A stretch of 53,602 nt of DNA from the NCBI GenBank assembly GCA_001938485.1, contig MQRK01229288.1:1-53602 (forward strand), written 5' to 3'. The DNA comes from Girardia tigrina. Its lineage: Eukaryota. This document shows positions 837-48,600 of the stretch, piece by piece. Every line of letters begins with the position of its first letter. The first letter of the stretch is position 1. A program made the position numbers and the translations under genes. The notes under the pieces were generated by a model. The model was given only the letters and a program-made list of their open reading frames with translations, had not been told where the DNA came from and did not search any database.

Positions 837-3109
837 CTCTATCTCCTTTGTGATTCAACAGTTCCTTTGTTCTTATCACAATCTCCTTCCGTTAATTGTT
901 ATATACAATTATAGTATTTAATAATTTATATTTTCTTTTTATTTGTTATAGTATTTACGAAGTTGCGAAAACAAGTTAATAAGGTTCTTCGACCTCATTA
1001 GCTCGCTTCCGTAATATAAATCATAAAAGAAATCAAGTCATTAGGAATGGTGCCGTAAAATGGTGTATTTGCCTCTCTCAAGTTCAATCTATTTATGAAA
1101 CACATTTTGTGTTTCTGCCATGTTCAAAAAAGTTCATATATGTTTTTGTTAAGCTGAAAAAGTTCTTCAGATGTACTTTCAACTTCAATTTTGTAGATAA
1201 TAGCTTGACAATTAGCTCGACATATATGAAATTAAATATAAGTTTTCATAGGACCACCTGTTCACAAAGTACTATGTAAAAACGTTTTATAACATGTTAC
1301 ATATATTAAAAATGTAACATGTTCAGACATGCAATTATTTAATAAGAAAGATGTTTTCAATGAATATCAATATGTATATGTTTATTGACCATTTTACTGG
1401 CCAATACTTTTTCGGATGTTATGCCATCGAAGGTTGTATGCTGCGGCTGTATTTGTGCTGAGCAATTTGAGAATGTTATACACGTAAACTGCTAATGTTT
1501 TGTTCATGTAGAACATAAACATTCATATGAGCGGTAATTGAATTTAAAAAATGACGGGAAGAAACACGTATGGATCTTTTGAGACTGTTTCGAAAATAAA
1601 GACAGACAAAGTAGTTCTTTTACTAAACCCATAAAAGTAAAATATTAAACAAGTTTAGAGTCTCAATATTTCACATGTCAAAAGCTTTAAAAATAACAGA
1701 ACATTAAAAAATATCAATATTATTTTAGTTTGGAATTTATAAGTAAACATATAAAGGACTATTGGAGTCTTTTAGACAAAGAATGTTTTGACATTCTAAA
1801 GCAAGGACAATGGCCATGAAACGGCAATGACTGAAACATACTCAAAAAGCCTCGCAATATATTATGAATGACATTTACAAATAATACTTCAAACAATAAG
1901 TAACAATAAATGCTTTCATTTAATTAATTTTTATTTAATCAAACTTATTAGTATTAGCTACAAAATTTATAATTTTAATATTTCGTGTTAAAGTTCGATA
2001 AAATAATTGACACATCTGAAAGTATTTCCCTATTTTCTATTATTAACAGGCATCTTGAACAAAGGTTGTCGATATTGGACACCAAAATCCTTAACCTACT
2101 TTTACACTAAATATTTATTAAATTCAAACAAATTTATGATCATTTAAGAAAAATTTTATTATAAATTACTTAAATAGTATAAGGGTTTTTTTCAGAATTC
2201 CAATTAAAAATTATATATATTGTTACATTTATTTGTAAATTCCTCTCTCCTTGCCGAAATACTATTCAAATCAACATGCTATCATGTTATATTGAATAAA
2301 AATTCACTGATACTTTATCGTTGAATTTTATTGCTTGCTGCATAATATAAGACAATAATAAAAATTAATTAAAGAAAATTAAATTATAATAAAAATAAAA
2401 AAGTTTATATTAAAAGATTTGATTTTTGTTCAACGAAACAAAGAAAAATTTATTAATGATCGATTCAAATCAATTAGCTGATTTGTGTGTGTGCCGCTTA
2501 TCTTGTCAAGTTGCTAGTGAATGAAACGCCTCTCTTTAATTGGTCAACCAAATAGAATGAGCCTTGATTTAGTCATGATTTCACTTTTTATGATTTGATC
2601 AATTGTGAAGTTTTATCAAATATTTGACCGAAAGAAAAAACGAAACTGATCTTGCGAAATTTTTTTGAAAGCTTTTGAATGATTATAATTTTGAACGTTT
2701 AAATGTATGTGAAATTTAGTCACTGTTATATGAATTCTAAATTACTACTTATTTATCTAATTAATTTGAATTTTGTATTATGAATTTTGTTGAATCCGAT
2801 AAAAAAATTATTGAACGAATTATTTCGATTAAGGATTAAAGATAAAAAATTATTATCATTTGATGGGCAAGCATTTACTCTCTACAATAACATGGTCCCA
2901 GCACGAATACAAAATGCTCCAGCTTTAATTACGCGACTACCACTCTACTTCTACCACCATCCGGTATCAGAATGTTTAAAACGATAGATATCAAATAACA
3001 GTTACATTATCATAATTCTTTTAAAGTTATGAGTTTTAGTGGCGCATGTATTATAAATTTTAGATCAATAGATAAAATTAGAATTTTGAGTCTTAATAAA
3101 ATGTTTCTA

Positions 3110-4788
3110 CAGTGCTGGAAAAAAGTTTTTGACAGTGCACTTTTTTGCGATTTTTAGTGAAAATATATTACTAAAACAGTTTTTCAACCCAATATTTTTA
3201 ATACAACCTTATAAACGTATATTTTATCTATTTTAAGTAAAGAATTAATACCAGAATTTTTTAATTTCAATCAAAAGAGAGAAATCATTGAATGATACAC
3301 TTTTATTTAAAAACGATAAAATATCAAGCTAAAAGTTAATCAGGATAATATGGCATAAAATGAATAAAATAGTAACAGGAATTGATAAAATGCGTTAAAG
3401 AATCATAGTTTAAGCCAATCGAGTTCAATATTTGGTTGGGTACCCTCTGCTTCGGTTAATAGCTGCGATACGTCGTGGCATGCTCTCAGCAAGTTTCTGG
3501 TACTACTCTGCAGTGGTCTCTAGGCACCATACCCGTTTGATTTCCTCTTTTAATTGACTTATAGATGTTATTTCGATCTCACTGAGTTTCCTCTTCATGT
3601 TGGCCCACAGATGTTCAAATGGATTCAGGTCTGGGCTGTTGGATCGCCAGTTAAGCAACTCAATTTTGTTGACCTGAAACCATTTCAGCGCCTTTTTTGA
3701 ACAATGGCAAGGGGCATTGTCTTGCTGGAAAATTGTACAATCATGGACGCACATAAAATGAGCCAACTCTCTTCTAAAATCTTGATATAACCATCAGTAT
3801 TGAGTCTTTGGTTTAAATTGAGAAGTGTAAGCCTCCCTCGGTCATGGTGGGAAAAACAGCCCCAAGTCATGGCAGAAGCTGGTTGCTTGCTAGTCTTCTT
3901 TGTGTACCTTGGGTTCACCGGTGATGAGCCAACTGATCTTCGAATTGTCTGATTGGGGCAATTGTTGATTTGGAATGAGCTTTCATCACTGAACATGACC
4001 TTTTTCCACTTTTCAATCGTATAATTCTTGTATTTTTCACAAAATTGTAATCACTTCTTTCTCATTGCACTTGTAATGATTGGTTTTTTCACAGCTTTAA
4101 TGGATGAAATTTTAAATTCCTTGCACAGGCGATTTCTTATTGTACGTGTAGTAACATTGCTGCACTGCACTGCCAGATTGCGCCTGATTTGGGCAGAAGT
4201 AATAAAGGGATTCTTCACTGCTGGCCTTCTCATTAGTGCATCAACTCGGGGCGTGGTTGCTTTAGGCCTGTCTGATTTAGTTTTAATTGAAGTATTGCCT
4301 TCGGATTTATATCTTTTGATTATATTGACAACAGATTGATGGGAAATTCCCTACTGAGCTGCAATTTCTCTTGTTGACAGACTTGTATTGCATTGTAATG
4401 GTATAATAGCACCTCGAATCTCTTGGTCAACTTGTTTTCCAGGCATAGCAAAAAAAAATCACGATTTGATTGGTTGATGAGGGAAGAAAGAAGGATAATG
4501 CATTATATCAAATACAAGGGATGCAGCTTATTTTGCATGCATTGTACATATAAGAGTATATTCACATATACATGGCCATGCATACATTTTATTATGTAAG
4601 CATTATGTATGCTCACATAATATCCTTAAATAGTCTCATTCTATTAATTCTTTACTTAAAATAGATAAAATATACGTTTATAAAGTTTTATTAAAAAATT
4701 TGGTTGAAATAATACATTTTCATTTGGTAATACATTTTCACTAAAAATCGCAAAAAGGTGCACTGTCAAAAGACTTTTTCCAGCACTG
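3110..4788 (-). mobile_element. Full-length Tc1-family DNA transposon
   Basis: TA|CAGTGCTGGAAAAA...TTTTTCCAGCACTG|TA with TA target duplication. TIRs of ~145 bp (3110-~3250 and ~4640-4788). Internal DD34E transposase. Confidence 0.95.
3425..4446 (-). pseudogene. Tc1 DD34E transposase, disrupted
   Basis: MPGKQVDQEIRGAII start, VMFSDES, FQQDNAPCH and SPDLNPFEHLW with 34 residues between D and E. Ends GYPTKY*. Several stops/frameshifts split it into ORFs 4051-4233, 3685-3996 and 3503-3766. Confidence 0.93.
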
Positions 4789-5126
4789 TATCCCATAATG
4801 AAAATACTGTTGAGATAAAACTGTGGCTTCAGAAAAGTTTTGGAGATTCTAAGGTAAGAGATTTCGTTCAAATTAAGAGATTATTACCGAAACTGAGACA
4901 TTTTTTGAGAAGAAAGACGATGCGTTCTACATAAAAGGAATTGAAAAGTCTAAGGACGATTTGAATGTATACATCATTCTTCAATGTTGATGAATAAAGT
5001 TTCATTTCTACATATATTTCTGTTTTTCTTACCGAGACGGGAGATTATTGAGTAATGTGTTGCTTCAATTCATCATATTTTCATATTACTAAAACAAAAA
5101 CCTGGTTCTACAGAACTACTTATTTA

Positions 5127-14427: not shown

Positions 14428-15450
14428 AAAATATTCGCCATGCATGTTAAAGGAAAATCAATAAGGGAAATTTCAAAAATGTTATAGATAAGTAAATCGA
14501 CGGTGTTCGATAACATTAAAAAAGCTAAATACCGTCAGAATAACTCATCACAAAAGAAATCTGGACGACCAAAGTTGACTTCCGCTACTGATAACCGGTG
14601 TTTGAAGAGGTTAATTCCTCAATATCGTCGTGCTACTGTTCATGAAATCAACGAGAAATGGAGTATGCAAACAGGCATTTCTTCTTCTCCGTCCACTTGT
14701 CTACGTCGAATACATGAATTAAATTATTCATTTTACAAGGTAAGATTTTCTTAATGAAATATAAGCATTCTTTAAGGATAAAAACAAACCGTTTCTATCA
14801 CCTATTCAAAAGAAAAAGAGACTTGAATGGGTTCTTAATCATAGTAAATCGAGCCAAAAATTATTGGAATAAAGTTATTTTTTCAGACGAATCTCGTTTT
14901 TAATTGTCTTTTGGGCGAAAATGGAAAATCGGTCTTAAGACTTAGTACCGCGTCATTATTATCAGACTGTTTAAACCGAACTCTGAAATTTCCAGAAAGT
15001 GTAATGATTTGGGGTTGTATGACACGTAAAGGACTTGGTAGTCTTCACTTTATAGAGGGCACAATGAACTCTACAAAGTATACCGAGATATTAATGGAAA
15101 GTTTCATCCAATCTATTACGCAATATTTTGACAATGAAGATTTCATTTTTCAACAAGATGGAGCATCTTGTCATACTTCTAAATTTACAAAAACTTGGTT
15201 GATGAAAGATAATATGTCCTTCTGAACATGGCCTTCAGGAAGCCCAGATTTAAGTCCCATAGAGAATGTTTGGGCAGTTATGAAAAAGGAATTACGAATA
15301 AAACGTCCTAAAAATAAAATTGATTTGAAGAATAAAATTTTAGCAATATGGAATAGTTTTCCCATTGATAAATGTCAGGATTTATACAATTCAATGAATA
15401 TAAGAATGGAAGATGTCATAAAAGCAAAGGGCGATGTTACAAGATTTTAA
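14428..15450 (+). pseudogene. Tc1 DD34E transposase pseudogene with a 37-nt intron (14740-14776)
   Basis: HVKGKSIREIS, SGRPKLTS, VIFSDES, VMIWGC, FQQDGASCH and SPDLSPIENVW (D34E); ends AKGDVTRF*. Removing GTAAGA...TTTAAG restores YSFYK|DKNKPFLS..KRLEW. TIRs not identified. Confidence 0.9.
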
Positions 15451-16284: not shown

Positions 16285-16570
16285 GTATGTTAGTAAAAAA
16301 GTCATTTTTTATATCGTAATATGACCATCACGTCACAATATGTTACGTCAGAATACTCTAATATGATTGGACGAATCACTCTGCACATTTAAACTAGGTT
16401 TACAAAACTTTATTAACAATTTTCAGTAATTGTTCTTTCATAATTGTGATCAAAGTTACTAGTTAAACTATCAAAACTATCTTTGCATAGGAGTGTTAAT
16501 TAAGTATTGCAAAAGTTTTTAGACGTTTTTTTAAATTTTTCTCGAGACTGATATTTTATGATTTTTTATT
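16245..16570 (-). mobile_element. Penelope-like element 3' end (GIY-YIG C-terminus plus pLTR)
   Basis: Minus strand reads FDHNYERTITE..IKFCKPSLNVQSDSSNHIRVF* (stop at 16348), matching the end of ORF 47884-48288. Confidence 0.8.
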
Positions 16571-16769
16571 TATTTAGAAGCATTTCATAAAAGCTGATCG
16601 AAAAGTATCTTTATAATAATTTAATCGTACATTTCATTTTAATAAAACCAGGCTGTGAGAAGTGGTTGCAACGTCTATATCAGAATTCATTTTTTTAAAC
16701 ACCAAAATTTATTACTATAACAATTCACATTTCTAAAACAAATTTTCCTGTTAATTTAATTTAATTATC

Positions 16770-16988
16770 NNNNNNNNNNNNNNNNNNNNNNNNNNNNNNN
16801 NNNNNNNNNNNNNNNNNNNNNNNNNNNNNNNNNNNNNNNNNNNNNNNNNNNNNNNNNNNNNNNNNNNNNNNNNNNNNNNNNNNNNNNNNNNNNNNNNNNN
16901 NNNNNNNNNNNNNNNNNNNNNNNNNNNNNNNNNNNNNNNNNNNNNNNNNNNNNNNNNNNNNNNNNNNNNNNNNNNNNNNNNNNNNNNN
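16770..16988. other. Assembly gap (N run)
   Basis: Run of N. Confidence 1.
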
Positions 16989-17540
16989 ATTTTTAATTTT
17001 TTAAAATATTTAATAAGCAAATTAATATAAAAATATTTTACCCTTTAAATTAAAAAATAATAAACTATTCAGGCGAGATAAAAATTTAAAATTAACCCCT
17101 CATACAGGCATTTAGTTTACTGTAAATTTTATAAAAATTAAGTATACTGTAATCATAAAAATGTTGAAGATCTTGTGAACTCCAAGATAATATTTAGTGA
17201 AAGAATTGAGAGAAATATAAGAGATAAAACTCAAATGCTATTTCAATAATATTTAAAATGTGTAGTCATACAAATTGTCGAAATGTTTCAATCAAAACAA
17301 AAATATTCCACTGTTTGGATAGGTTTCATCTTCAAGACACAATTAACAGCTCATTGAAGTCCTCAAGAGAAAGGTAAAAAAAAGAGTAAGAAGAATTGAA
17401 CATTCATAAAGGAGAATATTAAAACTCAAAATCCCTTAAACAAAAAATAAATATTTATTCTTAAATATAATAATAACAAATATCCGTTTAATTTTTAATT
17501 TTAATTTTTTTGACTTTAAAATTATCTATAATGCTGATTT

Positions 17541-17720
17541 ATGTATTCCTGAGAAGAAATATCTCCAATACAATGTCAAATACCGGAAACATGGATTTAT
17601 CAATTCTCCAGTAAAAAGACAATTGCTCCTGTGTCTTGTTTGTGGAAAATCTTTTTATCAACTTGTCAACGGCACGGGCAATCCTAATGAAACATTTGAA
17701 AGCGTTTAAATTACCAAATC
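17541..17720 (+). pseudogene. BED-type zinc-finger N-terminus of a hAT (Buster/Charlie-like) transposase
   Basis: KKYLQYNVKYRKHGFINSP, frameshift, LLCLVCGKSF ... LMKHL, matching the Y..Y..GF...C.IC...L..HL pattern. Confidence 0.55.
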
Positions 17721-19848
17721 TTGTAAGTAATTGATGGCACTGGTAAAGCAATTTTAAAAAGAAGAGAACTTTTCCATTAAACATTTAACACTGTTTTTAT
17801 ATTTCAAAATACGGTTTTATATATATGAGGGGTTAATTTAAATTTTTATCTCGCCAGAATAATTTATTATTTTTTTAATTTAAAAGGTAAAATATTTTAA
17901 TATTAATATGCTTATTCAATATTTTAAAATTAAAAATGATATAATAAAAGAAAATCATAAAAAAATTAAATATCTATTTAAAAATAAAAAAATATCTATT
18001 AATGTATCGATCTTAAAATTAAAAATGTTAAGAAAACTATAAAATATTAAATATTTATTTATTAATAAAAATATTTTTAATAAGCAATTTTAAATAAATT
18101 TTAAATAATTTTTGAAATAAATTTTCAGGATTTTAAAAATTGAATCGAAAAGAATTTAATAGATTAATCTGCGGCGAGATAATTAAATTAACAGGAAACT
18201 TTGTTTTAAATATGTGAATTGTTATAAATAAATTTTGGTGTTAAAAAAATGAACTCGACTATCGATGTTGCAACCACTTCTCACAATATATAAATAATTT
18301 ATTTCTAAAATATAATTAAATATAATATAATATAAATTGATTAAAGATAATTTTAGATATTTTCTGTTTAATTAAAAAATCTTTACATCATCTCTGAAAC
18401 TTGTAATCATTCTAATCAACACAAATGCAACTCAAAGATTCAATTACCCGTGAATCGCCTTGAGGAATTTTCTTTGGTGAGACCTGATTCGGTTTAAATC
18501 AACGTTTTCTACGAGTTTTGTGAATTTATAAATAAGCCATGTTTCTCTCAGAACGTTGGCCGCGCAATTGCGCATCTGAATCGAAAATAAATAAATGTTT
18601 TTTGCAAAAATTGTACTCATTATTTTACTAATTTTCTTAACAAACTTATGTAAAAAAAGAAAATGATAATTTTTTTATAAATTAAAATTCATTTAGTTTA
18701 TTTGATATATATGTTTTTCTGATACTATAATAAGTGATGGAGTATTTACAATATACTCACCCCGTTTGCTACACTGATCTCTTCATTTTTATATTATACA
18801 TGAGAATATACTATTTAGAAAAATAACAATATACATTAAAATAATAATAATTATTATTGTTATGAATAAATTTAAATACAATAGATGCTTTTTTTACAGA
18901 AAACAATAAATATTTAAAATGTGAAGACAAAATAACCGTCATAACAAGCGCCTAATCCTTTCAATGAATTGTAAAACTGTTAGGATTATCAAAAATATCC
19001 ATATATATTGTTATGGACCACAACAGAATGTTTATTCTTATTTTGATTATTTTCATGTTAAGAAAAATTAATTTTTATTTAATAATATATATATACAAAA
19101 GAAATGCACCAAAATTAATTTTAATCACAAAAGTATTTTTAATAAAAAAATGAAGATATTAAAGGAACAGCTGATCACTCCGCCGACACTCAACAAAGAT
19201 TTCCGAGGCGTGAACATGAACATTGAAGGTCGATAAAACATCGTTTTCATTCTGACAGCGATCAAGGGTGACTACAATTAGGGTTAACTACAATTCACCC
19301 ACCATATTTGCAATAAAGCGGAAGTTGAAGTTGCCAAACGAGCTGCTGAAATTACCGAAGACGAATTGGAATGAATCAGAACGATCTGTCAAACCCCTCG
19401 TTCTACAAATTTACAATTTGGTTCTTGAACAGACAAAGAGACGTAAAGGATTACACTACCAAGAGAAGGTCCACGATACATTCAAAACATTGTTAATCAA
19501 TATACATATAACTAGTTGAGGAGAGCAGCACTGGTAATCACAAGCAAAAAATATATGCTATGAAAAACAATAAAAGACGTCATTTGAGTCTGAAAAAATT
19601 TTTAATATAAAATTTTCCTTATTCGAGATATATTTTGACTGATTTGTAAATATAAATGGTAATTGTGCAATAAACCTATATAATATCTAATGAAATACAT
19701 TTAGCAAAGTAGAAAAGAGCCTTGTTTGAAATGTTGTGCAATTGTTAAAAAATTTTATTTCAGAAAATTTCCCCTTTCAAAAATGATTTGAACAGGGATT
19801 TTAGATTCCTCGGTCGTGTCCCTTGGTTGCGTAGTAATTTTACTTTAA

Positions 19849-21460: not shown

Positions 21461-23023
21461 ATGAATTAATTTTTGCTGCAGATTTCAAGCATAATCTTTT
21501 AAATTCTTAAATACATATTTATAAATATGAATAATTATCAGAAAGAGTACATCTTGAGGAGGAAACGATTTGATCACAAAAGAAAAGTGGCTGTCAAATA
21601 ATATTTATACCTTTAGTTTATCAATGTAAATTAGCTATCCGGATAATGTTGTACTAGACTATTTACCTTGGATCAATTATTACACGGAAATCGGATGTGA
21701 TTGTTAATATATTCTGATAGCTCTCGATAGTTTTATCTTTTTTCTTATCACTTTTATTTTTAAAACTAAAATCAATCGTTTGTCTTATATCAATTTGTAT
21801 TCGAATCTTATTCGGGATTAATAATACTAGTTTGATGTACTAGATTATGTAAGTAATTTCTCTATTCTTGTAATATTTTTACGTCATTTTTATTTTTGAC
21901 ACATTTATTATTGTTCCTGTGGGAAAAATTTGAATTGAAACAATGAATTATATAAAAAATTTAAATTGAAACAATGAATTATATAAATTATATAAAACAA
22001 TAAATGTATAAAAACATTTCAAATAAATTCAAGAATCGTGAATATTGATAAATTGTTGTTTGTTGATGAAAATTTTTCTTTAAAATCAGAACAAAAAATA
22101 AAAATTGATTTCAAATAGAATTTCATCAACAGCACAATATTACAAATTTGCATGTAGAAGTATGCATAATAATGAGAGAAAATAACAAAATCATTTCAGG
22201 CATTTCCCTCATTAATTAAATTTAAATTTAATTTAAATCAATGAAAGTCAAAAATTGATTTAATCAAAACGCACTTCCTACCGTATTTCATAATATTAAA
22301 TAATACTCGATTTTTAATTTTTATAAAATCGAGTAATAGATACTGTGAGGGAAATTTCGGAATGTTGTAAGTTTGTTGTTTGTATGCTGTTTAGATTTGT
22401 GACTCTCTTACTCAGATGGATTGATATGTTATTTGATTGATTATTTGAATCTAATGAGATTAATTTAATAAGATTAATTTTTAAATACTAATTAATTTAA
22501 AGTTTTATAATTATAAATTTTAATTATATTTTTAGTATATTAAATTTAACTTATTTAAAATTTAATATATTTAAAAAACTAATTTTATTTAAAAAAAATA
22601 CTTAATGCATTTTTATCCAATAAAATTTTGAGAAATTAAAAGTTAATATTAATCTTGTCCCATTAAATAATTTTAAGATTTGAATTTAGACACAAAACCA
22701 TATTGATCAAGAATGACGATTTCCGCAGAAATTGCTACTGAAAATATTAGTGTTGTTAATAAATGTTTACATTCAAATTGTGATGTTGCTAATAGAGACA
22801 TTTTAAGACGATGCATTATCCTTAAAGAATTCCAAAAAATGAAGGTTTTTTATACTCCAAAATATACTGTATTTCAAATAAATTAGAATATCTAGTAAAT
22901 GACAGTTTAATTCATATATCGCTACAGCAATTAAATTTATTAAATTCTTCTTAATTTACATATAAATATTTAAAAAAAGACAATAGTGAATTTTTAAAAG
23001 TCAAAAAATTTTCGTCAGAATAT

Positions 23024-23068
23024 ATTGTGATTAATTTCGACGGATCAACCGTCATCATCAGACTGAAT
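23024..23068 (-). ncRNA. Minimal type I hammerhead ribozyme, intact core
   Basis: ATTCAGT-CTGATGA-T-GACGG TTGAT CCGTC-GAAA-TTAA-TC-ACAAT, ~65 nt 3' of the GIY-YIG stop. Confidence 0.85.
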
Positions 23069-23690
23069 TAACAATGATATACTCGCGTTTATATATCAAA
23101 GCAATGTTTATGTAATCATTATGTCATTTAAATCATGAAAATAGTTTCAATAAAGTTGAAGAGGATGGTGTTTGGACATTGATTTTAGGATCAAAAGATT
23201 TGATCAACAATGTTTCACACATAACCCTCTCCCAGTAATTATCAAATTGTGAACACAAAATCTTAAAATTACTTACGTCAACTTTACTATTCAAACAGTT
23301 CTTCTTATGTTGAGCAATATTGCTATCACTTTCCCTGCGATTATGTTCCTGAATCCGTTTACAGAGATGAAGTCTCTCCGATGTATGTGGCGTCACACCC
23401 ATTACATTTATATTGATAAACTAAATTGGAACATAACCCAGTTGGAGTGATAGATTTACTACTAAACAAACTTCCTATCTTACATGATCTAGATACAATT
23501 TTTAAATTTAATAAATTATTTTCATCATGTTTCAAAATAGAGTTTTTGATTTCCTGAAACCCTCAGAGTAGGGAACAGTCAAAACAAAACCAATATTATC
23601 ATAATTATTATTTATCTGATTTTTGTTTTTGTCGCTATTTATTGCATTTGATTTTTCATTTTCATTTTCCGATTTAATTAATTTGTTTTA
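23024..23690 (-). mobile_element. Penelope-like element, inverted 3' copy (linker, GIY-YIG, pLTR)
   Basis: ORF 23133-23402 (RIQEH..ERVMCETLLIKSFDPKINVQ). ~23440-23690 is the reverse complement of ~23970-24235. Confidence 0.9.
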
Positions 23691-25100
23691 TAATGTTTTA
23701 CCATTCTTAGATCTTTTGATAGAAAGAGCAAAAAACAACCATTTTGAAACTGGGATCTATAGAAAGAAAACTGATACAGGGTTATATACAACCCCTAACA
23801 GTTTTTGTGAACCTAAATATAAAAGAAATATGATAAAAGGTTTGATCTATAGGTCTTGGGCACTTTCGTCTACGTACGCTAAATGTAATGAAAGTATTGA
23901 TAAGTTAATGAATTTACTTCATAATAATGGATATTCCAAATCGATAGTTGAAAAATTAACTCTTGAAACTGTCGATAAATTAATTAAATCGGAAAAGGAA
24001 AAATCAAATACAATAAATAGCGACATAAACGAAAATCAGATAAATAATAATTATGATAATATTGGTTTTGTTTTGACTGTTCCCTACTCTGAGGGTTTCA
24101 GGAAATTCAAAAACTCTATTTTGAAACATGATGAAAATAATTTATTAAATTTATAAATTGTATCTAGATCATGTAAGATAAGAAGTTTGTTTAGTAGTAA
24201 ATCTATCACTCCAACTGGGTTATGTTCCAATTTAATAAATATTGTTTATTTTTAAATATGTATTTAATTTTTGTGATTTTCTTTATAAATTTAATGGGTG
24301 TGAAAGTTTTATAATTTGGTTCTTAGTTTAAAAAAATCTATAAACTTTTTTAACAAGGAAAACATGGTTGTAATTCCATTTGATAACATTTTTGTTTTTA
24401 AAAATTTTCTAAGAAGTAGAAAGACTGTAAATAGTATTTATGCTATTTTAATAATCACTAGAATCTATAATTTAAACATCCAATTTTGATTAATGACAAT
24501 AATTCACATAATTAAACAAGTTTCTTGTTAATTCAAGTATTTCGCCAAAAACAATCTAAATTAAATTTTTCCTCCACTTCAAGTTGTAGAATTTAAGAAA
24601 TTTTAAAATTTTAAACTAAAAAAATAATTTTTAAATTACAACTAAAAATTTTTATAAAATTTTATCTTAAAACTAATTAATTTTAATTAACCATGAGCCT
24701 TTTATTTGAAAAATGATTTCTTAAAATATTAAAGTTTAATCCGTTTATTATTTATTTTAACATTCTTATTCCAAAACTTTGTTGACTGTAAATATTGTTT
24801 ATTTTTAAATATGTATTTAATTTTTATGATTTTCTTTATAATATAACTTTTAATTTTAAAACTTTTGTATTTACTTACTTTTCTAAAACTTTCAACAACG
24901 CCACATACATCGGAGAGACTTGTCGATATCTCTGTAAACGGATTCAGGAACATAATTCCAGGGAAAGTGATAGCAATATTGCTCAACATAAGAAGAACTA
25001 TTTGAATAGTAAAGTTGATGTAAGAATTTTAAGATTTTGTGTTCACAATTTGATAATTACTGGGAGAGGGTGATGTGTGAAGCATTGTTGATTAAATCTT
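23690..25100 (+). mobile_element. Penelope-like element (RT thumb, linker, GIY-YIG), 5'-truncated and interrupted
   Basis: LPFLDLLI..YRKKTDTGLY..KRNMIKGLIYRSWALSS (ORF 23623-24156). ATYIGETCR..RIQEH resumes at ~24899. Confidence 0.9.
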
Positions 25101-27839: not shown

Positions 27840-29019
27840 TAAATAATTTACTTAAAGATTTAAAAAAAATAATTATTGGACATGTTTTGATGTTTTTACT
27901 TCATTATCTGCAATTAAAATTTCATATTTGTTCGAATTAATGGGATAATTTTGTTGTTTGTTTTTCATAATTCAAGATATCATTGTATAATTATTAAATA
28001 TAATTCGGATCGTATCATGGTAAAAGTAAATTATTTACCTTTAAATGGTTAAATATACATTTTACTACAAAAAATAAAGAAATAAATGTTATGAAATAAT
28101 AAATAAATATTACTCAAACTTTATTCCATAAATTCAGTGTTCGTCATAATTAAATTATGTCTCTTAATTATTCTATTCATTATAATTTTAGTCAAGCTAT
28201 AGAAAAAGCAACATTTAATTTTTAATTAAATAGTTTCTCATGTAAAAAATATACAAAACAGAAAAAAATATTTAAAAAATATACTTTCTTTTAACTATGT
28301 TATCAGATATACAATTTTATAAAATTTCTTTTCGATATTATAAAAAAATAATACGAACTGATGACAAGATTACATAAAAAGATTTAATAATTATTTTTAT
28401 TATTGTAAAGATAAATACTTAATAAGAAGAAAAAAGAAAAACAAAAGATTTATAAATAATGTTAATTAGTTTTATTAATTGTAAACATTGGTATTTGTTT
28501 AATTTCTTTCCTTTAATTATATTATTTATTTTTAATAACGATGGACTGTAGAACTCTATTTGTGGGACATTAATAGGTAAAAGGCGAACCCACTGTTAAG
28601 AACAAATGTACTTATGGGATGATCTTTTATTTTCTCAATTTTTGAGTCATATGTATCTCCAATATATACGTATAAGTTTCATATTCGTTTATCGAATTAT
28701 TTGTTTTGAAAACTTTCCACCAAAAATCACTTTCTCAAAAAATTTAATTTTGAAAATCGCAATTGTAGAAATTAATTTTAAAAAATCAAAAAACAGAACG
28801 CGACGAAATAAAATTGAAGAAAAGAAAAACTCAAAAGCAAGTCATAAGACAAAAGACGAGAATCGAAAAGAAAATACGATAGTATTTTTTTGAATAATGA
28901 ATGAAACGCGAAAAAGGATTTGAATAATGATAAAAACAAACTTAAAGTGTCTAAAAAGATCGATGAAAAGTTCTTCAAAATTTATCGAGAATCAAGGGGA
29001 GCTAAAAAAACCTGTTTAA

Positions 29020-29464
29020 GGTACAAAATTTGAAACGTTTTGCTCTTAGAAGTATCTCTAATCTTAAAATAGAACGGTTTTCTGCTTCAAATTTCTGGTT
29101 GAGGTTTAACATTAAGAGATTTTAACATTAAGAGGTTTAACATTAAATTGATAAAATTGAGCAATAAGCGAAAATTTGCTGATAAAAAACGTTGTAGAGA
29201 TGTCTTGAAAATATAGAAAATATTTTTACAAAATATACAGTTGAAAAAAGTTAATGTTAAACTGTATATTTTAACATTAAACATCTCGAATGTTTAAACA
29301 TCTACAAGATGTTTAAAGATTGGAGATGTTTATTGGATTAAAGTTAAACCTCTTAATGTTAAAATCTCTTAATGTTAAACCTCAACCAGAAACTTGAAGC
29401 AGAAAACCGTTCTATTTTAAGATTAGATATACTTCTAAGAGCAAAACGTTTAAAATTTTGTACC
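29020..29464. mobile_element. Kolobok-type MITE with ~125 bp near-perfect TIRs
   Basis: TTAA|GGTACAAAATTT ... AAATTTTGTACC|TTAA. GG termini with TTAA duplication; arms 29020-~29145 and ~29340-29464. Confidence 0.8.
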
Positions 29465-29595
29465 TTAAGCTACTACAAAACGTACCAAATACTCCTTAAC
29501 TATAGCTATTTGAAGAAAAAGGTGATGAAAAATTATAAAAGAATCAGAAGAACGACTTACAGTAAGTCGTTTAATGGTAAATAAAAAACCTTAAA

Positions 29596-33481: not shown

Positions 33482-35514
33482 TAATTAAATTAGTACACAC
33501 CAATTGAAAAAAAATAATTTTGAAAAATTGATCAACTTTTAAAAATCGAGAAGAAATTCAGATCAAATCCCATACATTAATCGATCATTTTATTATCAAT
33601 AAATCATACAGAAATAATTTGTCTTTTCATGCGCCTAACAATGCCCATTTTATTACACATTGACTATTTTTTATTGCTTTTCCTTCCACGACAAAATTTA
33701 TATAAATAAAGAAGAGATCTAAAGACAGAAACGAAGTGAACAAATGCGTCGCTCGAGTACAAAAATGTCCTTTAATTAAATAGACGAAACAAACCTTTTT
33801 TTCTTAAATTATCACTTAGATTTTGTATTAAATGAAAAAGCAAACACAACCCGTTTCCATGAATTTTTTAATGAAAAAGTTTTTTATTAAATTGAAAAAG
33901 AATGTTTTCTAAAAAAATAAAGAAAAATAAAAATATATGTTGAAGAAATTCTTTTAAAGTAGAAAAATAGGATAAATTGTTTCGATTAATTTCACTATTT
34001 TTACATTTATTATTTCCACTTTTGTATTACAAAACAAAAAAAAGATTTATCAATCTTCAAGTTTTTTTTGTAAAAGAAGATTAAAAAAATATTTGTATTA
34101 GGAAGAAATAAAATATTGAATTCTTTTTGATTGTTCTTTGAAGTTAAAAAATTAGAAAGACTTTTTATTGTTTCTTAGCGAACTAACACATTGGCTATAA
34201 CTGTTGTTAGGTTGGAGAGGATTTTTAGAATCTTGTTTTAAAGAAGATTCGGAAATCGATATTATTCAAAATTTTAGTTATACAACACAATACCATATTT
34301 TCGAACAAATTTTCGAGGAACATTCCTTCTTTTGGTCAAACCTTTTATACATAACGATAATGTAATATTAATTGGAATACTTAACTGGTTACCTTTTGCG
34401 ATTTCCAAAATAAGTTTTATAACATTTCTTTTATTAAAATTTTATCCATTTAAAAGTTGTTTAAAATTATTTCTTTTTAATTCATTTAAAAAATATTTTC
34501 ATATCAAAAATATTTCAATTATAAAGTTATCATTTTAATCTTTAAACATTTTTTTTATAAAAAAAACTATTTTTTTTTATTTTTTATTATTATAAAATTT
34601 TCATTTTTAAAAAAAAAATCTTTATTTTAAAAATCTTAAACTAAACTTTCAATTTTCGATTTTAATTTAAAATATTTTCAACCGTGAACTTCTACTATAT
34701 TTTAATTTATAAAACATTTTTTTACTTTAAAATTTCGTTCAATATATTTTAATGCATGAAATATTTTTAAATATTTTAAAATTCCATTGATAGATTTTAT
34801 ATATTAAAATTGAAACATTTATGTGAGCTCCAAAACATCTTAACAACTGTTATTAGAAACACTTTTTGGATTATTCTTGGGAGAAAAGAGCTCTTAAAGA
34901 ACTCTTAAAGAGCTTTTGTTCATAGATATCTTTTTCTATGAAATGAAAAAATGATATTTTATTAATCATTTTCATTTAAACATACATTAACAATCATACC
35001 TTTTAAATTTTAATTTAATAATATCTTTTTCATATTATCAATATTAATTTTTTTACTTTATTTTTTTCACGTTTTGAACTTTAATTTTTCAAATAATTAT
35101 CTTTTAAAACTTTAAAACTGATCTTTGCATTATCAATAAATAAAAATTTAGAATTTAACTTTCAGTTTGAATAATTGTAAATAAAAAACATTGAAAAATA
35201 TCAATCGACCTTTGGATGGGAGAGATGCAGTACAAAAAACAACAAACTAAAGGCAACACATACTAGATCATTAAAAAATTCCTCACATTATCTATTCAAA
35301 GCAAATTCAAGAACTTCCTTCATCAGGCGATATTAGAAATAACTTTTAAATAAGTATCAAAAAGAGAAGGTGCTTCACCATTCAAATCAAAGTAATTTGA
35401 AATAATTTAATAATTCATTTAAATATTTAAAAGTTATGATAAATTATTTTTTAAATCCAAAAAGCGTTTGTCAAAATCACAAATATTTATTATTGTTAAA
35501 ATTTTATAATTGCT

Positions 35515-36198
35515 AGATGGGACTTTTTTCTGATTGGTTGTTCGTAGTTTTTTTCTGCAGCAGTATGGGTCGCCAGTCGATGCTCACTGCATGTGAGCTC
35601 AATACCTGAGTTCGTTCAAGCACTTCCAACACAAATAAAGGAGTACCCTGAAGCTGAAGCATGAACTCAAAATTATTCTACAGACTCATCCTCGTCCAAG
35701 ATAGCCTTTCCCTGGAGCAGAATAATATTTCTTGGATTGTGTTTAGGATCATGAAACTCGGAAAAGTTGAGAGTCTCACGTCCGTCACAAAAGGCCTTCT
35801 ACATTCTTGCAGACTATAGAATGTTTGATCGGACAGTGACAGTTCCAATGGACGTTTCTCTGCCTGATAGGAAGACATAATCCAGGGGCTTGCTATTGGC
35901 AGGAATCCATGTACGCAGAACATCTATGACAAAAGTGTAAAGCAAAACTGTGTATTCACACTATTTATTTTTAATGGCATCGCAGAGAAGTTTGTATTTA
36001 TCCAAGTTGTCCCTGTTTGCCCTTTCCAAGTTCTCCTTCTCATTAAAAGGACACTTGACATCAATCAATACTATCCGCTTACAATAAGGAAAGAATACTT
36101 ACAAATCAACCTTCAGAGTTGAATAAACAAACCTGCAGGTGACATTAACATACAGTTCACCATTGCAATACTCTTGGATTTGTCTTAAAATGTCAACC
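35515..36198 (-). mobile_element. 3' end of an RLE non-LTR retrotransposon (NeSL/R5/R2-type): restriction-like endonuclease domain plus 3' UTR
   Basis: One frame with only in-frame stops: STLKVDL*..IVLIDVKCPFNEKENLERANRDNLDKYKLL..TFVIDVLRTWIPAN..SNIL*SARM*. This matches the PD..D.PF..K..KY..VG.LG.W..N signature. Stop at 35673-35675. Confidence 0.8.
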
Positions 36199-36213
36199 TT
36201 ACATCTAATGTCA

Positions 36214-37070
36214 ATCTTTCATGATCTAGATATAATTTTTAAATTAAAAAAATTATTTTCATCATGTTTCATAATTAAGTTTGTGAATTTTCTGAAACCT
36301 TCAGAGTAGTGAACAGTTAAAACAAAACCAATATTAATAATTATTATTTATCTGATTTCTATTTTTACTGCTACTTTTTGTATTTAATTTTTCATTTTAG
36401 TTATAGATCCCAGTTTCGAAATGGTCATTTTTCGCTCTTTCTATCAACAGAATAAATAATGGTGAAACATTATTGTTTTCATATTATACTGTGAACTTTA
36501 TATTCGAATGTAAGGAATTCATATAATTTAAGAAAGATTCAACTTGTTTTTCATTATCAAATATTAAAAAAATATCATCTACATAACGTTTATAAATTTT
36601 AGCTATAATACCATGATATAGACTTATTTTATCTTCAATCTTTGAAAGAAGTATCGAAGCTAAAGTTAGAGCTAATGGAGAACTCATAGCTACCCCATTA
36701 ACCTGTTGATACCATCCATTATTAAATAAAAATCGAAAATTCGCTGTGGAAAAATATAAAATTCCCCAAAAAATATAACAACCTTGATAAATACCGCATT
36801 GTATAATGTAAGAGATGTTGATTGTTTTCATTTATGTTTTGCTATTTTTGAAAATATAAGTGAAAAAACATTTAATGATAAAATTGTGACACAATTTGAT
36901 TACAATTTTGGAAATGAATTAATTTTCTTTGATTACTATTTAAAAGCCATTATTAAATTTTTGAAGTGGGCAATTTCGTCTTCTGTGATTTTGATTATAA
37001 TTATACTTTCAAAGTAAAACGATTTTCTCGAATTAAAATTTTTTTAGAATTTCTTTATTTGAAATGTTTT
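36214..37070 (-). mobile_element. Penelope-like element RT/thumb fragment (same family as 23.0-25.1 kb), internally deleted
   Basis: ORF 36484-36831 (QVNGVAMSSPLA..YKRYVDDIFLIF..MNSLHSNIKFT). 36220-36480 matches 23484-23760. Confidence 0.9.
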
Positions 37071-37984
37071 TTTTTTATCTGTCTGTAACGTAAATAACTG
37101 AAAAACAGAATAAATAATCTCACAAAAAATATTAAATTGGCCTAGCACGATCCCCAAACGTCTGAGTATCTATTCAGTCATTTTCGCCTATCCTACCGCT
37201 GTTGGGTTTTCAACCTGCAGATCTGATGAAACCTTTAGAAAGAAAAATAGGAACGAATGTAGTTAGATATACATAAAGGTACGCTGGAGTCTAGGAATCT
37301 ATTTTGCGTTTGGGATTAAAATATGTTGTAAAAGTAAAACAATAAATGAATTTCCAATTAGACATTGCTATGTTATTCACATCGAAACAATATGTTTTTC
37401 TCACATATCATTAAAGAAGACGGAAATTAATTGATAATCTGCAAATATGCATTGTTATTAAAAATTGAAAAAAAATAATATAATAGGTAATAATATAAAG
37501 AGATAAAGTTGTATAAAGTAAAATAAATAAGTATGATATTGATTGTTAAAACACAAAAAAAATATTTAAAGTAAGAAATATTCAGAAATAAAATAATATT
37601 CTAAATGAATACTTCAAAAAGTCCTCCAGGTACAACTTTTTCTTTAATCAATATTATTTTTATAAAAAAATAAAAAGATAAATATTTTTGTTTAAATTAA
37701 AAAAATTGCAAAAATCTTAAGTTAGCTCTTCAAGTGTGACTTGAATTCAGTAAATGAATAAAACTGGAAATTTTATGATTTATCGAAACGCAACTTTATT
37801 TTGTTATTATTTCACATTTAATTTCGATATATTTATTTTTGTAAATTTTAATTAAATTAAATAATTAACGAAAATCGTGTGAGTCAAACTCTTTTATATT
37901 TTAGTAATTTTCAATTAAATACGTTAACGTTTATCGATTTTTAAATTTTTTTTACATAATCATATTTAAATAATAAGTAATAAG

Positions 37985-47295: not shown

Positions 47296-48600
47296 CCCCT
47301 ACCACCATTAATGGCGGCAATTTCCTTACAGAAGTCAATTACCCTTACTCTACACGAGATATGTAGACGATATATTTCTCATTTTCCAAAATAAGGGTGA
47401 TATTGAGGAGTTTTTAAAATTTATGAATGGGTTACATCCAAACACGAAATACACTTTTGAAATAGAAAAATCTAACAGTATTTCATTTCTGGACGTCCTC
47501 ATAAAAAGACCATCGATGAACTACAGGACACAGGTCTTTCGAAAATCCACTGATACTGGATTACACAGTGGTCCCAAAAACTTTTGTGACCCTAAGTATA
47601 GCAGAATTATGGTAAATGGACTAGTGCATAGAGAATGGAATTTATCTTTCTCATATGGGAATGTGGACTATGGTTTAAACGACCTTCAAAATAATTTAGA
47701 AAAGAATAGCTACAATAAAAATTATGTAAATAAGCTAATTAAAGATGCCATTGACTCCATATTTAGGAAAACAAATAATAAAAGTCACCACATAATCGAA
47801 GTTCCAAATACCACTGAGAATTTGTTAAACATCACCTTAAAGATACCATTTCTGAGGGAGCAAAAGATTTCAAAAATTCATTAATGAAAAGAACTCCTTC
47901 AATTTTTAAATTGAGGGTAATTTTTACCACAAATAAAGTTTCTGGTTTCTTTTCTAATAAATCAAAAACTCCATTGAGTGTGCAAGCAAATATAGTATAT
48001 CAGTTTAAATGTCACAAGTGCGAAGCCTTGTACATTGGAGAGACAAACCGTCATCTTCGAACTAGAATAGCTGAACATACTCAATCGAGTCGAAACAGTT
48101 CCATTCTTAATCATATATTGAATTGTAGGGATCGAGAAAATATAGGGAGTGATAAGGAATTTAGTGTTTTATGTAAAAATTTTGACAGTTATAAGGAGAG
48201 GATAATCACTGAAGCATTGTTAATTAAGCATTATAAACCATGCTTAAATGTTCAAAGTGATTCCTCAAATTATATTAAAATATTTTAATTCTTGGTTTTT
48301 TTTGTCTTCTGTTTCTTCTAAGTTTTCTTCTTTTTTGTCTCTTTTTTTTGAATAAAAAATTAAAATTTTGAATATTGATTTTTTAGAAGTTTTTTCTTGT
48401 TAATTTTTTTTAATTAAAGTAAATAAAAAAAAGCCTTAAATTGAGTAATATTGCGTAACAGTCTACCGCTATATAAAAAGGACTTAAATCTGAAATTTAA
48501 ATTAGTCAACTAAAGATGCCAATATGGAGAAACTAGTATTGAAAAATAAATTTTTGGAAAAATGGCTAATTTTTGTTTTATTAACCCGATTGCCATTGGA
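47296..48600 (+). mobile_element. Penelope-like element, 5'-truncated (RT YVDD, thumb, GIY-YIG, pLTR)
   Basis: LYTRYVDDIFLIF at ~47350; ORF 47423-47884 (SFLDVLI, FRKSTDTG); ORF 47884-48288 (IVYQFKC..LYIGETNRHLRTRIAEH..EALLIK..LN). Confidence 0.95.
48506..48542 (+). ncRNA. Degenerate minimal hammerhead ribozyme
   Basis: TCAA-CTAAAGA-T-GCC AATAT GGA-GAAA-CTAG-TA-TTGA. Stem I TCAA/TTGA; core G5 mutated. Confidence 0.7.

Follow-up and report, generated by a model that had tools for sequence, protein, structure and literature searches.

Whether a Penelope element (PLE) can exchange its GIY-YIG nuclease for the RLE of a LINE is the question raised by a locus in Girardia tigrina. A sequence-only reading of the window, a stretch of 53,602 nt that is an entire contig of a 1.43-Gb assembly in 255,254 contigs, had described a Penelope reverse transcriptase (RT) and linker fused to an RLE. 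It had offered either a nuclease-swapped PLE lineage or, as the more parsimonious option, a one-off 5′-truncated LINE insertion or template switch. If a mobile PLE carried an RLE, the PLE pairing of RT with GIY-YIG would be broken.

Layout and reading frame of the locus

The following pieces were distinguished.

36784..36894, plus strand: inverted 111-nt piece from the 5′ region of the Penelope ORF, 90-93% identical to other copies
36402..36771, minus strand: C-terminal part only of the Penelope RT (QVNGVAMSSP...YVDD), 87-90% identical to 19 family loci
36214..36398, minus strand: Penelope linker, after a net 234-nt deletion, with a stop at 36221
36199..36213, minus strand: filler of 15 nt, with 7 nt in common with each flank
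35473..36198, minus strand: 3′ 726 nt of a NeSL-like RLE LINE, matching about 40 other places at 80-83% identity
36197-35670, minus strand: RLE remnant within the LINE part, with five stops and with the CCHC and RH motifs cut off
35410..35477, minus strand: 3′ end of a Penelope pLTR with its tail; 50-56 of 67-69 columns are identical in comparisons with five pLTR tails

Six-frame translation of the assembly sequence, from which alone the junction is known, confirmed that the junction is real there and that the linker continues into the RLE on the minus strand without a frameshift (S*KI-DIRCK-VDIL...KVDL...IDVKCPF...DKY). The RT, which the sequence-only reading had placed in the same frame, lies in another, because a 2-nt deletion at 36336, in the linker, separates it from the RLE; only the linker and the RLE have a common frame. 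Today's frame contains eight stops (36486, 36399, 36221, 36101, 35963, 35816, 35801, and 35675), and the in-frame join is probably a one-in-three accident. Across the join, the G+C content rises from about 0.2-0.25 to about 0.35-0.45. The duplicated junction motif described earlier was also found: the filler at 36213-36199 has 7 nt in common with the LINE side and 7 nt with the PLE side, and 6 of 5000 random 15-mers from the window do as well in sharing sequence with both flanks. Such a filler may be a signature of end joining or of RT slippage.

Several boundaries had to be moved. The RLE element had been ended at 35515, but the LINE part, which includes a 3′ UTR with the exact family 3′ end, reaches 35473. 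Beyond it, a Penelope pLTR tail that the sequence-only reading had missed runs from 35477 to about 35410, overlapping the LINE end by 4-5 nt of microhomology. GIY-YIG is indeed absent at the locus. Penelope breaks just before GIY-YIG, but the switch is no clean nuclease boundary, as helix 1 of the RLE loses its RH motif. At the other end, the PLE part stops at 36894 rather than 37070. The RT piece has lost about 424 codons upstream (ORF offset estimated on one family copy), and its Pfam match covers positions 110-182 of 205 of RVT_1 at an E value of 5e-5, under the cut-off. The 36784..36894 piece matches other Penelope copies in the orientation opposite to that of the RT piece and represents a 5′ inversion of a kind common among PLE insertions.

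Other repeats occur in the window. Directly upstream of the Penelope inversion, 36895-37232 is a further repeat with 76% identity to another locus (L053). Two stretches, 3685-4050 (minus strand) and 14848-15225 (plus strand), carry the motifs FSDES, VMIWGC, and FQQDGA, by which we take them to be Tc1-like transposase fragments; a Pfam search with them returned nothing at an E value of 0.01. Palindromic or inverted-repeat-bounded stretches at 29016-29468, 51280-51543, 16654-18285, and 3108-4790 are likely MITEs or DNA transposon ends.

The Penelope and LINE families and the decay of the locus

A family search with the Penelope part, in which the best 40 of 3076 candidates were scored, matched 36771-36402 and 36398-36214 to a high-copy PLE family at 81-90% identity. 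The gap between these two pieces is 237 nt in 5 of 10 copies versus 3 nt in the window copy, a net loss of 234 nt. Copies of this family translate into GIY-YIG (YQYKCNGC..YIGET), and the RT piece matches proteins containing both RT and GIY-YIG (P0012 and P0013). As noted earlier for the sister PLE at 23-24 kb, which stays Penelope past the junction point, all 15 family rows listed do likewise, most of them running readably into GIY-YIG. The family structure includes a pLTR, a tail, partial tandems, and inverted 5′ pieces. The sister element (22957-25100, minus strand) is younger and has GIY-YIG and a pLTR, with inverted pieces at 23690-24234 and 24898-25100. A different Penelope family is present on the plus strand at 47312-48288, with an RT piece and GIY-YIG (Pfam E value, 5.5e-7) in overlapping frames.

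The assignment of 35477 to about 35410 to the pLTR tail was supported by a best score of 64 against 30 pLTR tails, compared with a maximum of 55 in 1500 composition-matched window segments. Since this tail resumes after the LINE, the LINE sits inside one Penelope copy. Between the two joins, five gap-free family rows have 459-468 nt, and four rows with N have 440-662; the LINE thus replaces about 459 nt of Penelope, namely GIY-YIG and most of the pLTR.

The LINE part was compared with the genome using 35500-36230 as the query, and the best 40 of 369 candidates were scored. Identity to these other copies was 80-86%, and all of the non-window rows began at query positions 33-36, which places their start at 36198 or immediately after it. 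In 18 of the 19 other loci read, LINE sequence lies upstream of the RLE: a CxxC-HxxxxC knuckle and an RH motif (variously mutated) directly precede the window's first RLE residue, D..D-x-K motifs are also seen, and a YADD-type RT follows further upstream in long copies. LINE-type RT, CCHC knuckle, and RLE thus occur in one ORF in the donor family. The sole exception, L008, has its truncation almost at the base where the window copy is cut. Two further LINE copies, one truncated at -727 (L068/L008) and one inverted at -721 (L135/L102), break within about 6 nt of the window 5′ end, a hint of a hot spot of LINE breaks just after the RH motif. In L068, TTAGGG repeats follow a clipped 3′ end.

The RLE remnant alone gave nothing useful against Pfam and PDB, and its identity was taken from homologs of the family. 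Database proteins P0001-P0003 are 58-60% identical to one family copy; P0001 and P0002 carry Peptidase_C48 and RVT_1 (residues 63-154 of P0001 match Peptidase_C48 at an E value of 1e-10), and the best PDB matches of P0002 are R2 proteins. Family copies tile P0001 end to end, with about 50-70% identity over stretches covering nearly all of P0001 and P0002; residues 1-275 of P0001 align to one copy (L073) at 53%. The window RLE corresponds to residues 1134-1306 only of this Ulp1–RT–RLE protein (53%; E value, 2e-45). The domain order of the donor family is Ulp1–RT–CCHC–RLE. We call the donor NeSL-like because NeSL LINEs and one Utopia family, Utopia-1_TSP, are described as having a Ulp1-like protease at the N terminus (PMC4640811). 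There are hundreds of candidate copies of this family (among them L062-L081 and L098-L117), and some of them (L073 and L077) repeat the protease-like region.

The family 3′ end is a fixed motif, located at 35473 in the window copy, and the 5′ ends spread from -131 to beyond -3479 (42 loci, duplicates included), with the window copy at -724. No clear target duplication was found in these loci; the longest candidate was 6 nt or less in 40 of the 42 and 7 and 9 nt in the other two. No shared target site was found: 57 motif hits, a few of which are not true ends, gave 47 distinct 3′ flanks, which are AT/T-rich and otherwise unrelated. Targeting of Penelope as a family rule was rejected on these 47 flanks; besides the window, only two events involve a pLTR.

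No second copy of the PLE–LINE junction was detected. Among the best 40 of 1321 candidates, only the window spans the join, and an exact gapped junction pattern matched the genome once. A pattern allowing two mismatches gave 12 matches versus 8 in a reversed control, and LINE sequence was missing from all 10 other loci it returned; its sensitivity was estimated at about 50% per copy, so that old sister copies may escape it. Within the reach of these searches, the junction is single-copy, and CCHC, RH, and LINE-type RT precede the other RLE copies, leaving the nuclease-swapped lineage of the sequence-only reading without support.

The locus is decayed. The LINE part differs from its family majority at 0.245 of G/C sites and 0.103 of A/T sites, and the PLE part at 0.218 and 0.073, respectively, whereas other PLE copies are 1-3% and 16 of 18 other LINE copies 3-6% from the majority. 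Considering all differences in the RLE, we observed a nonsynonymous deficit (52 nonsynonymous and 33 synonymous versus 63.7 nonsynonymous expected, P 0.004), which we assigned to subfamily sites common to L068 and L074 (15/19). When the subfamily sites, defined with these two older copies only, were removed, the private RLE changes numbered 37 nonsynonymous and 14 synonymous versus 37.9 expected under neutrality (P 0.44), and purifying selection after the fusion was not detected in them. The corresponding figures for the RT piece were 28 and 12 versus 31.4 (P 0.12). The RLE module is incomplete, lacking CCHC and RH; a double mutation of RH (RH/AA) is reported to have abolished R2Bm cleavage (PMC4838377). 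Because the private changes are neutral and the RH motif is cut off, a functional fusion is very unlikely at any time, and very unlikely too is that a working RT–RLE protein was ever made from the locus. The locus is a dead, broken relic, not a nuclease-swapped Penelope lineage.

Origin of the composite

We consider it probable that the LINE entered the pLTR through target-primed reverse transcription of its own and that end joining removed the target upstream, leaving this single-copy sandwich. Priming would have used a short ATTT(T) microhomology of the pLTR, and the LINE cDNA, truncated at its 5′ end, would have landed inside a 5′-truncated Penelope copy; the 459 nt may have gone when the 5′ end of this cDNA was joined or at some later time, and the flank-copied filler may be the scar of that deletion. 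In favor of nesting, Penelope lies on both sides of the LINE in one orientation, and the LINE has the exact family 3′ end and a 5′ end within the family spread. At another locus (L062; G000:C87175, about 16450-18600), a 2.1-kb copy of the donor LINE lies inside the pLTR of another PLE subfamily; about 15-20 nt of target are missing there, and the 5′ join shows partial homology. Simple nesting accompanied by loss of target therefore does happen in this genome. Upstream target deletions, microhomologies, and extra bases are also described for 5′-truncated R2 copies (PMC2718515). Weighing against nesting, 459 nt is a long loss beside that at L062; the PLE and LINE parts show similar divergence, which a single event would explain equally well; solo tails and inversions start at most a few bases away from the pLTR base on which the window LINE ends; and a second, independent LINE copy has its 3′ end on that very base without upstream Penelope.

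This second copy (L098:2815) is younger, is cut at -1000, and is followed by 30 nt of Penelope tail. The same LINE–tail join is carried by five contigs (L098, L099, and L129-L131), which represent one event because their flanks are shared. An exact LINE-end-plus-tail pattern found the window only, missing this group, which differs at one or two bases. By chance, 0.013-0.035 same-base ends are expected among 140-369 copies, given that 235 kb of LINE-selected loci contain 9 pLTR-like sites; a T-run preference would raise this estimate several-fold, and the copy was found with a tail-containing query. We tentatively entertain, though we doubt it, that the join is not due to chance, either because the Penelope RT jumps onto foreign RNA 3′ ends or because the LINE prefers one pLTR base. 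In the former case, the RT would start in its own RNA, jump near the 5′ end produced by a putative hammerhead cut, and mobilize LINE RNA in trans; if true, a nonrandom LINE–tail join would have left two independent footprints in the genome, at L098 and at the window locus.

Second among the readings, and possible although less so than nesting, is a single Penelope-primed integration with template switches between PLE RNA and LINE RNA. The PLE protein would nick AT-rich DNA, start inside its own RNA, and copy the 65-nt tail; the cDNA would then switch at the ATTT(T) microhomology to the LINE RNA 3′ end and copy 726 nt, and a switch back to PLE RNA in the linker would leave the filler, with the usual inversion ending the integration. 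In its favor, the independent LINE copy with its 3′ end on that pLTR base has no PLE upstream, and its 30-nt tail stops at the shorter tail end. For Poseidon of Anolis, internal initiation is described at two sites, which delimit the tail (PMC11167929); a PLE-primed cDNA switching to LINE RNA would therefore look no different. PLEs are also described as carrying foreign sequence in trans (PMC3846280), and the parts are of equal age. Against it, two switches between unrelated RNAs are required, the portion of PMC11167929 used here contains no template jump and describes hammerhead cleavage as dispensable in vitro, and plain nesting is seen at L062.

PLE 5′ boundaries also bear on this reading. 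A putative minimal hammerhead, of the kind that PMC4209133 describes, was read by eye in the pLTR (core, stem II, and palindromic helix III), but it was absent from the minimum-energy fold, and an Rfam search of 7 loci gave no hammerhead. At L047, L119, L122, L123, L125, and L126, solo Penelope tails or inversion joins start 0-8 nt beyond the putative cut. With classes assigned by hand, the 8 pattern matches just 3′ of the putative cut comprised 5 boundaries or inversions, 2 internal deletions, and 1 unclear case, compared with 1 boundary, 1 internal deletion, and 5 small indels among the 7 matches in a control interval 18 nt upstream. The difference is suggestive of a hot spot of PLE 5′ ends and consistent with template switching, but is not significant (one-sided p about 0.11).

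It is quite improbable that three unrelated events built the locus, with a LINE at the end of a 3′-truncated Penelope and a later solo PLE tail on the AT-rich 3′ end of the LINE. Solo tails starting at the same base do exist (L047, L119, and L126), and the window tail is slightly closer to the L104/L047 variant (55/68 and 56/67) than to young copies (50-51/67), but position and orientation would have to coincide twice.

An assembly chimera of two repeats, which the fragmentation of the assembly might suggest, is more improbable still: Penelope is collinear around the LINE at both joins, the filler copies both flanks, and the parts are not confusable by an assembler because all of them are 10-16% diverged from their family majorities. 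Two DNA runs, possibly the source data, contain 48% and 37% of the sampled words; no RNA run was listed as containing them.

Least probable, and to our mind barely worth entertaining, is a once-mobile Penelope lineage with RLE in place of GIY-YIG and the locus as a decayed, truncated daughter, for although linker and RLE are in frame, the break falls just before GIY-YIG, the composite ends in a PLE tail, and very old sisters could escape the searches, one junction copy was found, CCHC and RH are lost, the private changes are neutral, and an RLE profile gave no score with any of 16 PLE-type proteins from the database (a weak test with a small profile and the window's other PLE family as the query). 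The parsimonious option of the earlier reading, a one-off insertion or template switch, is the one supported. The locus is not a new kind of mobile element; it is likely an ordinary nested insertion with deletion.

Comparison with known systems

No PLE–RLE element was found when searched for, and the window locus is not one either. It may instead be a snapshot of how nuclease swaps could begin, by nesting and end joining, in frame one time in three. It also offers a hint on later steps of Penelope integration, namely whether the RT changes template after copying the tail.

Like the Penelope-mediated capture in trans described for Adineta vaga (PMC3846280), the window locus has foreign sequence bounded by PLE cis sequences. 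In the A. vaga case as described in that paper, the cargo is enclosed by complete pLTR pairs and by target duplications, whereas the window has a tail only, and no target duplication beyond 6 nt was found around the whole composite. Like the 5′-truncated R2 insertions described in PMC2718515, the window LINE combines an exact 3′ end with a truncated 5′ end, upstream target loss, and extra bases; unlike R2, its target is a Penelope pLTR rather than 28S rDNA, and the loss is 459 nt.

The donor family, with its Ulp1-like protease, RT, CCHC, and RLE, resembles the NeSL-clade LINEs (nematode NeSL and Utopia-1_TSP), but its unrelated flanks set it apart from the target specificity that is typical, although not universal, of NeSL. 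The host family, with RT, linker, and GIY-YIG and a CxxC between motifs, resembles canonical PLEs with a C-terminal GIY-YIG, including partial tandems, two tail ends about 35 nt apart, and inverted 5′ pieces, a layout described for PLEs in PMC8557442. Unlike the canonical GIY-YIG PLEs described there and in PMC11167929, the window copy has lost GIY-YIG and most of its pLTR to the LINE.
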